Shown here: positions 1 to 5,666 of the stretch, piece by piece
Layout: each line of letters starts with the position of its first letter
How positions within the stretch are numbered: the first letter of the stretch is position 1
Origin: PVC group bacterium
GTDB lineage: Bacteria > GCA-001730085 > JADFSZ01
Length of the DNA: 5,693 bases
Reading direction: 5' to 3'
Assembly: GCA_022560555.1 (NCBI GenBank)
Contig: JADFSZ010000118.1
Span: 1 to 5,693, forward strand
Program-made: the position numbers and the translations under genes
The notes under the pieces: model-generated
The model's input: the letters and a program-made list of their open reading frames with translations, nothing else
Database searches by the model: none
Told to the model about the DNA's origin: nothing

Positions 1-815
1 AAATCATTAATTTTAGTTTTCTTCATCCGGACGATTTAAGCCTCTCAGAAAAACCCATAAAAATACCCAATCCTATTTCTCGTGAACAATCTGTTATGAG
101 AACAAGCTTGATCCCGGGTCTGTTAAAAGTGGCTGTAAGAAATCAAAATATTAAGGAAATGAATCCATGGCTATTTGAAATCGGCCGTATATTTTTGGAA
201 GATTCGTCAAAAAAGAAAGTCTTCGAAAAAACGCGATTTTCTATATTGGTCGCAGGAGGCCCGCATGAGCTTAAAGGGCTTGTGGAGAGAATCCTTGCTA
301 AGTTTCAAATCGAGCGCGGGGTGATCAATACTTCGGACCATCCTTGGCTCAAGAAAAATCGGTCTTTAGAATGGCTGATCGACGGCGTTTCTCTCGGATT
401 TTTTGGTGTCTTAGCCGATTCCGTAAAATCAAAGTATGGATTGGACCTGAATGTATCTATCGGTGAATTTGATTTTGATCGGATTTGTCAGTCAGCAAAA
501 CTTGATAAAAAGTATGCGCCGATTCCAAAATATCCTGCTGTGTATCGTGATATGGCTCTTATTGTGGATGAGGGTGTGTCGTACCAGGATTGTGTTGAAT
601 GCATAAAGACTTATGGGGGATCATGGCTTGAGGATGTCAATCTGTTTGACCTCTATAGGGGTTCCCCACTCAAAACCGGAAAAAAAAGTATGGGTTTTTC
701 GTTAGCCTATAGAGATGCATCGAAAACACTGACAGAGAAAGATGTTGATGTCCCGCATGAAAAAATATTGCACGCCTGTTTTCAAAAACTGGGCGCTGAA
801 CTCAGACCCAATTAA
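1..815 (+). CDS. pheT: Phenylalanine--tRNA ligase beta subunit, C-terminal portion (5' end lies outside the window)
   Basis: The frame of ORF 96..815 stays open back to nt 3 (IINFSFLHPDDLSLSEKPIKIPNPISREQSV-MRTSLIPGLLK...), so the ATG at 96 is internal. NPISxExxxMRTSLIPGLL and LFEIGRIF are characteristic PheT core motifs. The last ~95 aa (YAPIPKYPAVYRDMALIVDE...FDLYRG...GKKSMGFSLAYRDASKTLTEKDV) match the C-terminal FDX-ACB anticodon-binding domain. Stop TAA at 813-815. Confidence 0.9.
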   Translation, partial: IINFSFLHPDDLSLSEKPIKIPNPISREQSVMRTSLIPGLLKVAVRNQNIKEMNPWLFEIGRIFLEDSSKKKVFEKTRFSILVAGGPHELKGLVERILAKFQIERGVINTSDHPWLKKNRSLEWLIDGVSLGFFGVLADSVKSKYGLDLNVSIGEFDFDRICQSAKLDKKYAPIPKYPAVYRDMALIVDEGVSYQDCVECIKTYGGSWLEDVNLFDLYRGSPLKTGKKSMGFSLAYRDASKTLTEKDVDVPHEKILHACFQKLGAELRPN

Positions 816-867: not shown

Positions 868-2061
868 ATGAAATCTGTTGACCAAACATATACTGTTACC
901 ATAGAAAAAATTGTTTTCGGAGGCTGGGGGCTTGGACGTATTGACAACAAGGTTTGTTTTGTTCCTTTCGTTTTGCCCGATGAGGAGGTGAAAGTTTGTA
1001 TTACGGAGGAGAAAAATGACTATTCATATGCTCGAAGCGTGGGGATTGTTAAACCATCTGGGGCCCGTGTTCAGGCCCCGTGTAAATATTATCAGGAATG
1101 CGGCGGATGCCATTATCAACACCTGAGTTATCCCGACCAATTAACTCTCAAAACTCAGCAGGTGAAAGATGTGATTCGAAGAATATATGGTTCGGTGGAT
1201 TTTCCCATATACGATACGATTCCTTCGGATGATCCATTTTATTATCGTAATGACGTTAAACTCACACGAAATTCGCAGCGGCTCAATTTTCGATACGGAT
1301 TTATTGGCACGGATCATGTCTCCGTTGTGCCTGTTGACGAGTGTATGATTGTGTCCCGGAAAATCAATCAGGAAATAATGAGTCTCCCGCGTGATAAAAG
1401 TAAGCATGCCAAAAAACTTACCATTAAAAGTGATCTCTCAGAGCATGTTTCGTATTGGCCCGGATCATCCGCTGTTTTGCACTCGAAAATAAATGACAAA
1501 AAAGTTTATTATGACGGACGAATATTTTTTCAAGCAAATCAAAATATTTTAGAAAAAATCATACGGCACATATTAAGTATGAACATTTATTCGAAGGAGG
1601 ACAGTTGTTTCTTTGATCTTTATGGCGGGGTTGGGGTCTTTTCTGTAATGATGTCCGATCGCTTCGAGAAGGGGATTCTTGTCGAAGAAAACCGTAAGGC
1701 AACGCGATATTTTGAAAAGGCTGTTAAGGATAATGAGCTGGAGGCAGATTCATTTAGGATTTACCGGAATCGTGTAGAGGATGTGTTTGGATGGGTGTTT
1801 GATAAGGAACACAAAAAAAATAATGTTGTATTTCTTGATCCGCCGCGTATGGGTCTTGACGAAAAACTAGTATCTGAAATATCAAAAAGACGAGAGCATA
1901 TTCAGCATGTTCTATACTTGTCATGCAATCCGTCGACATTGGCGCGGGACCTCAAAAGGTTTGAGAGTGATGCTGCCTGGCATGTAAAGGGTGTATGGCC
2001 ATTTGACATGTTTCCTCAAACGAAGCATATAGAATGTTTAGCTTGGTTAACGAAATCTTAG
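868..2061 (+). CDS. rlmD: RNA (uracil-C5)-methyltransferase of the RumA/RlmD (TrmA) family: TRAM domain, [4Fe-4S] site and class I SAM methyltransferase
   Basis: 397-aa ORF. N-terminal TRAM-like beta barrel (TVTIEKIVFGGWGLGRIDNKVCFVPFVLPDEEVKV). Fe-S cysteine cluster CKYYQECGGCHYQH plus a distal Cys (VDECMIV). SAM motif I FFDLYGGVGVFS, motif IV FLDPPRMG, nucleophile-Cys motif LYLSCNPSTLARDL, and C-terminal DMFPQTKHIECLAWL with the catalytic Glu. Substrate specificity (RlmD, RlmC or RlmCD) cannot be resolved by eye, so the symbol is approximate. No obvious SD before the ATG at 868. Confidence 0.85.
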   Translation: MKSVDQTYTVTIEKIVFGGWGLGRIDNKVCFVPFVLPDEEVKVCITEEKNDYSYARSVGIVKPSGARVQAPCKYYQECGGCHYQHLSYPDQLTLKTQQVKDVIRRIYGSVDFPIYDTIPSDDPFYYRNDVKLTRNSQRLNFRYGFIGTDHVSVVPVDECMIVSRKINQEIMSLPRDKSKHAKKLTIKSDLSEHVSYWPGSSAVLHSKINDKKVYYDGRIFFQANQNILEKIIRHILSMNIYSKEDSCFFDLYGGVGVFSVMMSDRFEKGILVEENRKATRYFEKAVKDNELEADSFRIYRNRVEDVFGWVFDKEHKKNNVVFLDPPRMGLDEKLVSEISKRREHIQHVLYLSCNPSTLARDLKRFESDAAWHVKGVWPFDMFPQTKHIECLAWLTKS

Positions 2062-2118: not shown

Positions 2119-2526
2119 ATGGGTAGGCAGAAATTTGTGGTTGTGTCAGGCGCCTTGATCCGGATGGGCCAAAAATTTCTTTTGGCGCAGCGTCGTCATG
2201 ACGTTCGGTTTCCTCTTTTATGGGAATTCCCGGGCGGCCGCATTGAGGCCCCCGAAACACCCAAGCAGTGTGTTATAAGGGAAATGAAAGAGGAGCTAGG
2301 CATACTTGTCAAACCTCTACGATTGCTGGGAACATTTGAGGATGAACTTCCGGACCTGAAGATATATGTTTACTTGTATGAATGTGAAATTTATTCAGGA
2401 TCACCAAAAAGTTTAGAATGTGAAGATTGGGGATGGGTTTCACTTGAAAAAATAGAAGACTTGTCCTTAGCGCCCCTCGATCAAAAAATTTTCACTTGGC
2501 TCAAAGATGATACGTGTCATAAATAA
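2119..2526 (+). CDS. mutT: Nudix hydrolase, MutT-like (deoxy)nucleoside-triphosphate pyrophosphohydrolase
   Basis: 135-aa ORF with a complete Nudix box at nt 2236-2304: G-RIEAP-E-TPKQCVI-RE-M-K-EE-L-G-I, which fits GX5EX7REUXEEXGU exactly. It is preceded by LWEFPGG, typical of the MutT/NudG subgroup. The small single-domain size fits MutT. The exact substrate is not inferable. Confidence 0.8.
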   Translation: MGRQKFVVVSGALIRMGQKFLLAQRRHDVRFPLLWEFPGGRIEAPETPKQCVIREMKEELGILVKPLRLLGTFEDELPDLKIYVYLYECEIYSGSPKSLECEDWGWVSLEKIEDLSLAPLDQKIFTWLKDDTCHK

Positions 2527-2544: not shown

Positions 2545-3058
2545 GTGTTAGAAAGTCCCGGAATCATGGCCCTGCTGATTTGGGTCCTTTTTTTTCTTGG
2601 AACATGTATGCTTGTATTTTGGCTCCCGGGTAATCTTCTATTTGTCACAGGCTTGATCGGTTTATCATTCGCGACTCAATTTAGTATTATTCCCGGGAAA
2701 ATTCTTTTGATCGTCATAGGCCTTTTTCTTTTGGGAGAAGCTTTTGAGTGGATCGGAGCCATGGTGGGTGTTCGTGTGTTTGGCGCTTCAAAAGAAGCTG
2801 CGTGGGGTGCTTTGGCCGGCGGGCTCATCGGATTTTATAGGTCTATTAGGAATTGGGGTCGCGGCTCTTCCCGGACTTCTTCTGGGGCTTTTTATCGGCG
2901 CGCTTGTTGTTGAGCATCGAAAGAAGAGGCCTCTTGCCCGCTCTGTATGGGCAGGGGTCGGTTCTCTCTTTGGATGGGCGATGGGGGTTGGTGTTAAAAT
3001 ACTTGTCGCGATCGCTATTCTTGTGTTAACCTTAAGAAACGTTCCTTTTAAATTTTAG
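2545..3058 (+). pseudogene. DUF456-family small integral membrane protein, interrupted by a 1-nt frameshift (ORFs 2545..2913 and 2744..3058 are two halves of one gene)
   Basis: ORF 2545..2913 (GTG start, AAGGAG SD 7 nt upstream) reads as hydrophobic membrane protein up to ...GVRVFGASKEAAWGALAGGLIGF. It then becomes Arg/Ser-rich out-of-frame-looking sequence (YRSIRNWGRGSSRTSSGAFYRRACC). In the +1 frame the text from nt 2837 continues as IGLLGIGVAALPGLLLGLFIGALVVEHRKKRPLARSVWAGVGSLFGWAMGVGVKILVAIAILVL. Joined at the T4 run 2833-2836 this gives a ~171-aa protein with the DUF456 layout as I recall it (LPG... / FGAS+...G / PGLLLGPFxGAxxxE / R+ALxxGxG). The N-terminal 30 aa of ORF 2744..3058 (MSGSEPWWVFVCLALQKKLRGVLWPAGSSD) look non-genic. 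Confidence 0.7.
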
Positions 3059-3066
3059 GACTTGCT

Positions 3067-4152
3067 ATGGCAAAAATCGACCCATTGCTTGAGTTGGCCA
3101 TACAGAAAAATGCGTCGGACGTGCATGTCGGCAGTTTTAGCGATTGTTATCTGCGTATCAATGGAAAGCTATTGCCTCTATCCGCCGAGGAGATTCCCGA
3201 AGAATTCCGTGTTGAGGATAAAACGGAGGTTCTTCTAGAAATCTTATCGGAAGAGCAGAGGATGCAGTTTGAAAAAGATTTAAGTCTCGATTTTTCATAT
3301 ATCCTGCGTTTAGATAAACCTTGGCGCGCCCGGGTGAATTATTACCGGCAAAATCGCGGGGGATGTGATGCTGTTTTTCGCATTGTACCTCCGGACATTC
3401 CAACATTGAAGGATCTTGGATTTCCTCCATCGGTTATTCAGATGCTGCAGACCAAGCAAGGAATTATTTTCGTCACAGGGCCTCGTGGATCGGGCAAAAC
3501 GACAACATTAGCGGCTATGGTCGATGAATTGAACCGAAATACGACGGATCACATAATTACGGTTGAAGATCCAATAGAGTATGTTCATAAAAATAAATCT
3601 TGCATTGTCACTCAAAGAGAGCTGGGCTCACATACGGATACATTTTCGAATACGCTACGCGCGGCGCTCCGGGAGGACCCTGATGTGATTGTGATTGGGG
3701 AGATGAGAGATTTAGATACCATCTCTATGGCTTTAACATGCGCGGAAACGGGACATCTTGTGCTTGGAACACTGAATACAAATGATGCTGCGTCTACCAT
3801 TGATCGCGTGATTAATGTTTTTCCACCCAACTCGCAAGAACAGGTTCGAGTGATGATTTCGGATTCTTTACGCGGAATCATATCCCAACAGCTCGTTCCT
3901 ATGAAAGAACAGGATGCGAGGTGTATCGCGTTGGAAATTCTTGTCGGATCCCCGGCTTTATCCAGCATGATCCGTGAAAAGAAAACGTTTAATTTAATGA
4001 GTTATATGCAGACGGGTAAAGTAAAATTTGGTATGGAAATAATGGATGATAGCCTTTTGGATCTTTTTAGGAAAAACCTGATCAGTTGGGAAACGGCGCT
4101 TCTCTATTCACATGATTCTTTAGCCTTAGAGGTGGCGAAAGGAGAAACTTGA
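3067..4152 (+). CDS. pilT: PilT-family type IV pilus retraction (twitching motility) ATPase, paralog 1, with variant Walker A and His-box
   Basis: 361 aa, which is canonical PilT length. N-terminal ASDVHV motif. Walker A GPRGSGKTT (3478-3504). Asp-box IITVEDPIEYVH. Walker B REDPDVIVIGEMRD. His-box ETGHLVLGTLNTNDAASTIDRVINVFP. PilT-type C-terminus ALSSMIREKK...GMEIMDDSLLDLF. Weak AGGA SD 6 nt upstream of the ATG. Stop TGA at 4150-4152. Confidence 0.88.
   Translation: MAKIDPLLELAIQKNASDVHVGSFSDCYLRINGKLLPLSAEEIPEEFRVEDKTEVLLEILSEEQRMQFEKDLSLDFSYILRLDKPWRARVNYYRQNRGGCDAVFRIVPPDIPTLKDLGFPPSVIQMLQTKQGIIFVTGPRGSGKTTTLAAMVDELNRNTTDHIITVEDPIEYVHKNKSCIVTQRELGSHTDTFSNTLRAALREDPDVIVIGEMRDLDTISMALTCAETGHLVLGTLNTNDAASTIDRVINVFPPNSQEQVRVMISDSLRGIISQQLVPMKEQDARCIALEILVGSPALSSMIREKKTFNLMSYMQTGKVKFGMEIMDDSLLDLFRKNLISWETALLYSHDSLALEVAKGET
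4138..4144 (+). promoter_or_regulatory. Shine-Dalgarno sequence (AAAGGAG) for PilT paralog 2, embedded in the 3' end of paralog 1
   Basis: AAAGGAG lies 7 nt upstream of ATG 4152. The stop of the upstream gene (TGA 4150-4152) overlaps the ATG by 1 nt, the classic translational-coupling geometry. Confidence 0.65.
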
Positions 4153-5666
4153 TGGATGCCATGCAGGAATTGCTTCTACGTCTGATTGATGTGAATGGAA
4201 GTGATTTGCATATATCCGAGCATCATATGCCCATGATGCGGGTGCACGGAACATTAATCAAAGCTTCCGACAAAGATTTTACGGATGCTGAGATCCGTGA
4301 GATGATCTTTAGTCTTATGAATGACCATCAAAAAAAAAGTTTTCAAAATCGATTTTCTTTTGATTTTGCGCATGAAATACCGGGGAAGGCCCGTTTTAGA
4401 TGTAATGTGATGCGTCATCAGAGGGGGCTTGGAGGTGTTTTTCGTTTAATCCCGTCCATTATTAAATCGATCGATGATCTGAATTTGCCAAAAACGCTGA
4501 TTGATTTATCAAACACGCACAGAGGGTTGATTTTGATCACGGGGCCCACGGGGTCCGGGAAATCAACGACTATGGCCGCCATGATTGATCACATTAATAG
4601 AACAAGAGAGGCGCATATCATTACTTTGGAGGATCCTATCGAATTTGTTCATCAGCCTATAAAATGCCGTATTAGCCAAAGAGAAATCGGAACGCACGCG
4701 ACTTCTTTCGCGAAAGCTTTGATTGAAGCGCTTCGGGAAGATCCTGATGTGATCCTTGTCGGAGAAATGCGTGATTTAGAAACAATCGCTCAGACCATCA
4801 CAGCCGCCGAAACGGGAGCCCTCGTTTTTGGGACACTTCACACGAACAGCGCGGCAAAAACAATCACGAGAATTTTGGATTCATTTCCAGAGGAACAGCG
4901 TGAACAAATCCGGATTATGATGTCTAAATCCATCGTGGGTATTGTGGCGCAGCAATTACTTCCCACCCAAGATCACAAATCCCGTGTGCCCGCGTTTGAG
5001 ATATTGAGGGGATCCGGAGGCCTTAGCAATATTATCCGGGAAGGAAAAATACATCAAATTCAAACGATTATTGAAATGGGGCGATCGGAAGGAATGCGGA
5101 CAATGGACCAATCGCTTCAGGAGCTGGTTGCAGCCAAAAAGATTCTTGTTCGGGACGCTTATGTTTACGCGATCGAAAAAGACAAATTCCTGGAAGGCGA
5201 CATTGAACAGAAGCAGGCTTCATTTACAAATAATTATTCATCGTTTTGTCAGAACTTAGTTGAAAATATCCAAGAGGCTAAAAAGAACAAACAATCCATT
5301 GTCCTGTTGAACATCGCCATGGAAGGAATCGACCTTTACTATGATGTCGCTGGCCAAAAAGACATATCGTCTCTCGTCAGTAATATAACGGATATGATAT
5401 TAAAAAGCGCGAGGGGATATGATAGCTTTTTTGGAGAAGATCTACCGAAAAACTATTTAGTGGTGCTGAATAAAACGGACAATGGCAAAGCTCTTGCACA
5501 ACGTGTCTATGATAGCCTCGCCCCCTTTATAAAATTAAAAACGCAAAGTAAAAAAGTATCTGTCGATGTTATGGTCGGTTATGCTGTCCTGTCCGATGAT
5601 ATTAGTGATGCTGAACAATTCATTATGGCCACAAGGACTAATATCATCCGACAAGCTTCTTTTTGA
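4152..5666 (+). CDS. PilT-family ATPase, paralog 2, fused to a ~158-aa C-terminal degenerate GGDEF-like domain
   Basis: The ORF track starts at TTG 4149. ATG 4152 is preferred because the AAAGGAG SD at 4138-4144 gives a 7-nt spacer, and the ATG overlaps the upstream TGA by 1 nt (TGATG). The core of ~345 aa is near-canonical PilT: GSDLHI, Walker A GPTGSGKST (4542-4568), IITLEDPIEFVH, REDPDVILVGEMRD, ETGALVFGTLHTNSAAKTITRILDSFP, GLSNIIREGK, GMRTMDQSLQELV. Typical PilT ends about here, but this ORF continues for 158 more residues to the stop TGA at 5664-5666. Confidence 0.88.
   Translation: MDAMQELLLRLIDVNGSDLHISEHHMPMMRVHGTLIKASDKDFTDAEIREMIFSLMNDHQKKSFQNRFSFDFAHEIPGKARFRCNVMRHQRGLGGVFRLIPSIIKSIDDLNLPKTLIDLSNTHRGLILITGPTGSGKSTTMAAMIDHINRTREAHIITLEDPIEFVHQPIKCRISQREIGTHATSFAKALIEALREDPDVILVGEMRDLETIAQTITAAETGALVFGTLHTNSAAKTITRILDSFPEEQREQIRIMMSKSIVGIVAQQLLPTQDHKSRVPAFEILRGSGGLSNIIREGKIHQIQTIIEMGRSEGMRTMDQSLQELVAAKKILVRDAYVYAIEKDKFLEGDIEQKQASFTNNYSSFCQNLVENIQEAKKNKQSIVLLNIAMEGIDLYYDVAGQKDISSLVSNITDMILKSARGYDSFFGEDLPKNYLVVLNKTDNGKALAQRVYDSLAPFIKLKTQSKKVSVDVMVGYAVLSDDISDAEQFIMATRTNIIRQASF
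5190..5663 (+). other. C-terminal extension domain of PilT paralog 2: putative catalytically inactive GGDEF (diguanylate-cyclase-fold) domain retaining an RxxD-like motif
   Basis: Hand alignment to the PleD GGDEF domain keeps block order and spacing within 1 residue. IVLLNIAMEGIDLYYDVAGQ aligns with ALLIDIDFFKKINDTFGH. RGYD (5412-5423) aligns with the RAID I-site. LPKNY-LVVLNKT (5442-) aligns with GGEEF-VVIMPDT. KALAQRVYDSL aligns with ALRIAERIR. VDVMVGYAVLSDDISDAEQFIMATRTNIIRQ aligns with VTISIGVSATAGEGDTPEALLKRADEGVYQAK. The signature motif and metal-binding Asp are replaced. This is a by-eye call, not verified by HMM. Confidence 0.55.

Follow-up and report, generated by a model that had tools for sequence, protein, structure and literature searches.

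Can the ATPase that powers pilus retraction carry a second-messenger sensor on its own polypeptide? The question is raised by a 5,693-bp window, which is the entire contig of an uncultured PVC group bacterium with all genes on the + strand, and in which two PilT paralogs, PilT1 and PilT2, are encoded one after the other. A first-pass annotation made from the letters of this DNA claimed that the second paralog is about 504 aa long and ends in a degenerate GGDEF-like domain, and it proposed that cyclic di-GMP (c-di-GMP) controls the retraction motor through that domain. The best explanation of the sequence data is that PilT2 is a hexameric pilus ATPase of the PilT family whose C-terminal domain descends from GGDEF and is catalytically dead. 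Our leading reading of what the domain does, by analogy with PelD and PopA, is that it may be a c-di-GMP receptor of their type; we hold this tentatively, at a probability of about 0.42, and the functional interpretation of the annotation is plausible but unproven.

The pilT2 open reading frame (ORF) starts at position 4149 (TTG) or 4152 (ATG) and ends at a stop codon at 5664–5666. From the ATG it encodes 504 aa, as the annotation had it, and the product is 100% identical to NCBI entry MCH7505249.1 (P0003 in our collection of homologs), whose public annotation reads only 'type IV pilus twitching motility protein PilT'. Residues 5–344 match positions 2–341 of the 343 in the TIGR01420 model (pilT_fam) at 428 bits, against a cut-off of 319.1, and the core aligns to Pseudomonas aeruginosa PilT (PaPilT; Protein Data Bank [PDB] entry 3jvu) over residues 6–334. 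The N terminus is thus an ordinary PilT domain that runs end to end with the family model; of the 37 Pfam matches for PilT2, the 25 best include no T2SSE_N/MshEN family and none that starts before residue 115. About 160 extra C-terminal residues follow the core, corresponding to window positions 5184–5663, and the rest of this work concerns mainly them.

The extension is shared by two relatives. A full-length ortholog of 503 aa (P0004), from an unrelated sequencing run, has the same architecture and is 57% identical overall (66% in the core, 36% in the extension); on its contig (L001) the C terminus of a PilT1 ortholog lies just upstream, with the two genes 8 nt apart. A third, partial copy (P0001, together with a fragment, P0002) is 82% identical in the extension. 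The sequence of the junction between PilT and extension is conserved in three contigs, and between the window and P0001 the extension has a ratio of nonsynonymous to synonymous substitution rates (dN/dS) of 0.165 at a dS of 0.55; the extension is therefore a protein under purifying selection. The contig that carries P0001 (L002) is itself chimeric: its first ∼415 bases are high in GC by eye, have no similarity to pilT, and are joined to a low-GC pilT2 tail, and in the first 36 codons past that junction dS is 0.085, far below the 0.55 of the extension. We conclude that the fusion of PilT to a GGDEF-like domain is real and conserved.

The extension was compared with GGDEF domains by sequence, by profile, and by predicted fold. 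Its top Pfam match is GGDEF, PF00990 (E 3.3e-4, profile positions 11–149 of 161), at a score that stays below the gathering cut-off of 23.8 both for the domain alone (20.9 bits) and for the whole protein (17.0 bits); TIGR00254 scored 17.3 bits against PilT2, also below its cut-off (37.4). A profile of 159 positions, built from the three known copies of the extension, was searched exhaustively against 1.84 billion representative proteins and gave 22 matches outside the family (library-wide E 1.5e-8 to 9e-4). PF00990 proteins account for 21 of the 22, at E 1e-5 to 1e-3 and spanning approximately positions 16–152 of the 159. The lone exception, P0123, is the top-scoring match outside the family (E 1.5e-8), a protein of 1,598 residues in which no PF00990 was detected and which is matched in 11 short stretches, the best of them covering profile positions 82–117. 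When the extension family was aligned by hhalign with the GGDEF domains found in this hidden Markov model (HMM) search, the probability was 99.5%, with an E-value that is inflated because the targets were chosen by similarity.

Two AlphaFold models led to the same fold. The model of the window extension, made from the three-sequence alignment only, had a mean confidence (pLDDT) of 69 and a predicted template-modeling (TM) score (pTM) of 0.68, and its elements follow the order alpha0-beta1-alpha1-alpha2-beta2-beta3-alpha3-beta4-alpha4-beta5. In a Foldseek search of the PDB, its first 46 matches were all GGDEF domains (E down to 7.5e-7, TM 0.54–0.68), including those of PleD, WspR, DosC, DgcB, and FimX (3hva). 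The second model, of the extension of the 36%-identical ortholog, had a pLDDT of 66 and GGDEF topology; its first 12 PDB matches were GGDEF domains, followed by Cas10 palm domains, which share a superfold with GGDEF. For both models the top GGDEF matches lie at TM 0.58–0.68; sequence similarity between the extension and any GGDEF domain is just ∼11–21%. A defense-system reading, which the Cas10 matches prompted, was rejected, since PADLOC returned generic P-loop matches only and none for the extension. Four independent lines (Pfam/HMM search, hhalign, and two fold models) thus place the extension among descendants of the GGDEF fold, as the annotation had claimed. It had suggested two of these comparisons itself: the PF00990 search bore it out in part, as the best match but a sub-threshold one, and the model of the isolated extension has PleD and WspR among its top matches. 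Its helical linker is indeed helical in both models, though it consists mostly of the alpha0 helix that belongs to the GGDEF fold, not of a separate linker.

What such a domain can still do depends on which residues it has kept, and motif positions (Table 1) were taken from hmmalign and hhalign alignments against GGDEF domains including PleD, whose sequence was verified against PDB entries. The counterpart of GGEEF in the family is [LKM]PKN[YI] (LPKNY, KPKNY, and MPKNI). PleD D327 and D329 become N and A in the hmmalign alignment, as the annotation had read them, but A and E in the hhalign alignment, which is offset by one residue; neither alignment places an acidic residue at D327, a metal-binding position. 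The metal-binding E370 is replaced by K; of the phosphate ligands, R366 is replaced by G or P, and K332 by G or D depending on the alignment; the base-binding N335 has no counterpart, and of the PleD GTP-binding residues N335, D344, K332, and R366 none is clearly retained. With signature, metal ligands, and phosphate ligands all gone, the extension can be predicted with high confidence to be incapable of diguanylate cyclase activity, which the annotation had called very unlikely. In place of GDE/GEE in the signature hairpin, PKN (5445–5453) is invariant in all three sequences, alongside a conserved helix alpha1. To judge from these alignments, the former active-site face is also under constraint.

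The I-site shows the opposite pattern, and it is this pattern on which the receptor reading is built. The equivalents of PleD R359, D362, and R390, the last of which we take to be the third residue of the primary I-site, are R421, D424, and R451 in PilT2 by both alignment methods, and they are invariant in 3/3 family sequences while neighboring residues vary. KKN (residues 377–379) is likewise invariant and a candidate for a secondary site. The RxxD motif reads RGYD, RGYD, and RIYD in the family members, which answers in the affirmative the annotation's question whether it is conserved among orthologs. Both methods also agree with the annotation in aligning RGYD to the I-site and LPKNY to the GGDEF signature, with one extra residue between the two. 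Its count of 42 residues from the first strand to RxxD, against 41 in PleD, was right in the one-residue difference but not in the absolute numbers; we find 32 residues from LLNI to the Arg in PilT2 and 31 from LLID in PleD. Among the nearest GGDEF domains in the library (n = 21), RxxD is present in 20 and the R390-type Arg in 18, and an intact GG[DE]EF is missing in seven.

Several observations weigh against a c-di-GMP receptor. RxxD is a short motif, and an Arg of the R390 type is common among GGDEF domains generally. RxxD and the signature hairpin are one residue further apart than in canonical domains, and the hairpin region has a pLDDT <50 in the window model. The family amounts to effectively two independent sequences, that is, one pairwise comparison, and the invariance of the three I-site residues is weak statistics because 33% of all columns are invariant. 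Conservation of the I-site segment (38%) is close to the domain average (36%), and the best-conserved segment, at 70% identity, is helix alpha1 with the motif G[IM]DL[YF]YDVA, in the former active-site half, where it occupies the position of the canonical GTP-binding segment xFKxxNDxxG with different residues. This pattern is also compatible with a different ligand or a protein interface. In comparisons with PDB sequences, the three-sequence profile found no GGDEF chain (the best match was to CheA P1 domains, at E 0.17), and the single extension sequence found the GGDEF chain 3icl at E 0.023; this sequence-only evidence is weak, and what carries the case for GGDEF descent is the fold, the profile-profile comparison, and the search of the larger library. 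PilT2 also lacks the first His of its His box, and may not be a fully active motor alone. Finally, the view of the genome is a 5.7-kb contig, too short to judge c-di-GMP synthesis or the pilus gene set.

The alternative that best survives these data is that the GGDEF-derived domain binds no nucleotide and is a structural module for oligomerization or for docking, whether to PilT1, the PilC/PilM platform, or a regulator. FimX and LapD would offer the parallel, since their degenerate GGDEF domains act as scaffolds and not as ligand sites. The loss of every catalytic residue fits this view, as does a conservation that extends across helix alpha1 and the strands of the core without centering on the I-site; the FimX GGDEF domain is among the structural matches, and the long alpha0 helix in the model of the ortholog recalls the coiled-coil stalks by which cyclases dimerize. 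A pure scaffold would not, however, require the three I-site residues to stay invariant amid varying neighbors, and we consider it somewhat unlikely that the domain is only that.

It is distinctly less probable that the domain senses another small molecule, such as GTP, ATP, (p)ppGpp, or another cyclic dinucleotide, at the remodeled half of the active site or at the I-site. The top conservation of the alpha1 block, on the helix where canonical domains hold the phosphates and base of GTP, and the invariant PKN in the former hairpin would suit such a ligand. A weak match to the ATP-binding GdpP-type GGDEF family PF24898 (E 0.044) points the same way but is not significant, and PleD structures that contain ppGpp or pppGpp beside c-di-GMP exist (9g85 and 9g86). 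Against this stands the fate of the PleD residues N335, D344, K332, and R366 described above, and no precedent motif fits.

It is very improbable that the fusion arose by misassembly, read-through, or chance similarity. In favor of an artefact, the window is a short contig of a metagenome-assembled genome, contig L002 is plainly chimeric ahead of its family member, the neighboring DUF456 gene is frameshifted, and the Pfam score is under threshold. Yet an independent sample yields a protein, 57% identical, that has the same architecture and follows the same gene, the junction holds in three contigs, dN/dS is low, and four lines support GGDEF homology, so an assembly artefact is essentially excluded.

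We also asked how widespread this architecture is, which the annotation had named as a check on its novelty. In some 15 billion proteins, two relatives of the window protein were all that surfaced. No other member was found in 5.8 billion clustered proteins or in the 1.84 billion representatives, and the extension alignment picked up none when it was run against GTDB species genomes and JGI metagenome contigs. We then fused 12 PilT cores in silico with canonical GGDEF domains, one apiece, and ranked the 8000 proteins closest in word content by the resulting chimera profile. No canonical PilT-GGDEF fusion came out of those 8000, a negative limited by the word index, which caps the candidate set. 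In this ranking, plain PilTs were outranked only by the two known family members and by tandem PilT-PilT fusions, and PF00990 was in none of these. A genome scan with the RumA-like methyltransferase, for a close relative with the pilT locus, returned only a 33%-identical Leptolinea gene, and we found no paper that describes a PilT-GGDEF fusion. The family is extremely rare and comes from uncultured organisms.

The gene just upstream suggests that PilT2 does not act by itself. The TGA of pilT1 (4150–4152) overlaps the ATG of pilT2 (4152–4154) as TGATG, with AAGGAG 7 nt upstream of the ATG, which suggests translational coupling. Both histidines (H222 and H229 in PaPilT) are present in 216 of the ∼225 His boxes surveyed in the PilT homologs that we collected. 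The two paralogs in the window have each lost one, and in a complementary manner: PilT1 reads H..N and PilT2 A..H, and the ortholog P0004 reads V..H. The same complementarity is found inside a single fused PilT-PilT protein (P0019), whose first half reads H..N and second half T..H; the contig of P0019 carries no other pilus gene. Complementary His boxes, overlapping codons, and conserved gene order together lead us to propose that PilT1 and PilT2 act together, and the sequences suggest that they work as an obligate pair, possibly within one ring. If so, the GGDEF-like domain would sit on one subunit type only.

Tandem PilT-PilT proteins of ∼715–800 aa, each with two complete PilT cores (P0005–P0034 and P0145–P0148), form a sizeable family whose named members come from Lentisphaeria and Verrucomicrobiota. 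They are the top-scoring relatives of PilT2 after its ortholog, and none has a GGDEF-like domain. The idea that those of ∼730 aa are simple fusions of PilT1 and PilT2 was rejected by BLAST; only P0019 shares the complementary His-box pattern.

The c-di-GMP receptor reading can be put as a mechanism. The nucleotide would bind an I-site triad made of R451, on helix alpha3, and of R421 and D424, which directly precede strand beta2. Its binding would alter the packing of the six C-terminal domains around the ATPase ring, or the docking of the ring on the pilus platform, and retraction, in which PilT2 probably works together with PilT1, would thereby track the cellular level of c-di-GMP. By analogy with other systems, including product inhibition in PleD and WspR, high c-di-GMP would most likely damp retraction and favor cells that are piliated and attached. 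Cross-linking of neighboring hexamer subunits by c-di-GMP, which the annotation had offered as an example, is speculation that draws on the same PleD and WspR analogy. Nucleotide binding, the direction of regulation, subunit cross-linking, and the PilT1-PilT2 complex are all steps that we infer. The most specific form of the proposal, that PilT2 is the first retraction-type pilus ATPase gated directly by c-di-GMP, by way of an attached I-site domain and in a mixed ring with PilT1, is in our judgment unlikely.

Upstream of the pilT pair, the window holds genes for other functions (Table 1). The DUF456 gene is split between an ORF at 2545–2913, which covers Pfam profile positions 1–76, and an overlapping ORF at 2744–3058, which covers positions 71–137; a frameshift that makes this a pseudogene, or an error of sequencing or assembly, would account for the split. 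At the other end, a hairpin at 5590–5653 on the + strand, with a 17-nt stem and a 30-nt loop and followed by CUUCUUUUUGA, overlaps the last codons and the stop of pilT2. With a minimum free energy of −26.7 kcal/mol (z −2.5) it resembles an intrinsic terminator lying within the 3' end of pilT2; a basic terminator scan passed it over, since that scan allows loops of 3–8 nt only. An Rfam scan of the window gave zero matches.

Table 1. Features of the window, with pilT2 and its parts first, then pilT1 and the upstream genes; positions are those of the 5,693-bp window.
Feature	Positions	Strand	Remarks
pilT2-GGDEF-like gene	4152-5666	+	single continuous coding sequence, 504 aa + stop
PilT2 core (N-terminal domain + ATPase domain)	4152-5183	+	residues 1-344; TIGR01420, 3jvu alignment
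PilT2 Walker A	4542-4568	+	GPTGSGKST, intact
PilT2 Walker B	4746-4775	+	DVILVGEMRD, intact
PilT2 His box	4803-4844	+	AAETGALVFGTLHT; first His replaced by Ala, second His kept
PilT2 AIRNLIRE-like motif	5019-5048	+	GLSNIIREGK
Short, poorly conserved linker	5184-5228	+	KFLEGDIEQKQASFT; pLDDT <50 in both models; 13% identity to ortholog
Degenerate GGDEF-like domain	5229-5654	+	residues 360-501; Pfam, HMM search, hhalign, AlphaFold + Foldseek
Strand beta1	5304-5321	+	LLNIAM, on PleD LLIDID strand; metal-binding Asp lost
Helix alpha1	5325-5354	+	GIDLYYDVAG; 7/10 residues identical to ortholog
I-site motif RGYD	5412-5423	+	R421-D424, aligned to PleD I-site R359-x-x-D362
Signature hairpin position	5442-5456	+	LPKNY at GG[DE]EF position
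Helix alpha3 Arg	5502-5504	+	R451, AQR motif, aligned to PleD R390
Shine-Dalgarno and pilT1 stop/pilT2 start overlap	4139-4154	+	AAGGAG
pilT1, first PilT paralog	3067-4152	+	361 aa; TIGR01420 409 bits
pilT1 Walker A	3478-3504	+	
pilT1 Walker B	3682-3711	+	
pilT1 His box	3739-3780	+	CAETGHLVLGTLNT; second His replaced by Asn
pheT	96-815	+	3' portion
TRAM/RumA-type RNA methyltransferase	868-2061	+	
NUDIX hydrolase	2119-2526	+	
DUF456 membrane-protein gene	2545-3058	+	two reading frames

Both halves of PilT2 have counterparts among known proteins. Degenerate GGDEF domains that keep RxxD are c-di-GMP receptors, for example in PelD and PopA (PMC10333796). Like PelD of P. aeruginosa and PopA of Caulobacter, the extension has a GGDEF fold that has lost its signature and kept RxxD upstream of the hairpin and the Arg on helix alpha3. 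It differs from both in the extra residue between RxxD and hairpin and in its host, which is a transmembrane-GAF protein for PelD and a REC-REC protein for PopA but here a predicted PilT ATPase. A precedent for the arrangement is SgmT of Myxococcus xanthus, a histidine kinase with a C-terminal degenerate, I-site-bearing GGDEF receptor domain (PMC3509222): there, too, a noncatalytic I-site GGDEF domain is appended C-terminally to an unrelated enzyme, the host being a kinase rather than a pilus ATPase. Compared with canonical PilT (3jvu/3jvv from P. aeruginosa and 6ojx from Geobacter), PilT2 has the full PilT/PilU core with Walker A and B, the second His-box His, and the AIRNLIRE-like motif; it differs by the 160 extra C-terminal residues and by Ala at the position of PaPilT H222 (Val in the ortholog). 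A 2023 review tabulates Vibrio cholerae PilT as not binding c-di-GMP (PMC10333796).

Direct c-di-GMP input to ATPases of this superfamily is established for the MshE/PilB/GspE type, which receives it through an N-terminal MshEN domain (PMC5013675, PMC4624772). If the PilT2 domain binds c-di-GMP, it would share with them a sensor attached covalently to a type IV pilus or type II secretion system ATPase, but MshEN (T2SSE_N) is N-terminal and sits on extension or secretion ATPases, whereas the PilT2 domain is C-terminal, derived from GGDEF, and carried by a retraction-type ATPase. FimX is a separate protein; its c-di-GMP site is in the EAL domain, and its target is the extension ATPase PilB (PMC5595344). 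The FimX-PilZ-PilB relay of Xanthomonas and Pseudomonas likewise ties c-di-GMP sensing to the pilus motor and includes a degenerate GGDEF domain, the one that our model matches in 3hva, while in PilT2 the domain is fused to a PilT-type motor. What is new here is, on the sequence evidence, the combination of a PilT ATPase with a degenerate-GGDEF, receptor-type module, both kinds being already known.

The protein is publicly named only 'PilT' and the Pfam threshold misses its extension, so similarly diverged GGDEF remnants may be under-counted elsewhere. The c-di-GMP control of type IV pili known so far acts by the MshEN domains of MshE/PilB and by the FimX-PilZ-PilB relay, both on the side of pilus extension. 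If the c-di-GMP receptor reading is true, evolution would also have wired the second messenger straight to a PilT-type (retraction) motor, and PilT2 would offer a compact, single-polypeptide system in which to study the effect of a peripheral ligand-binding domain on the conformational cycle of the PilT hexamer.

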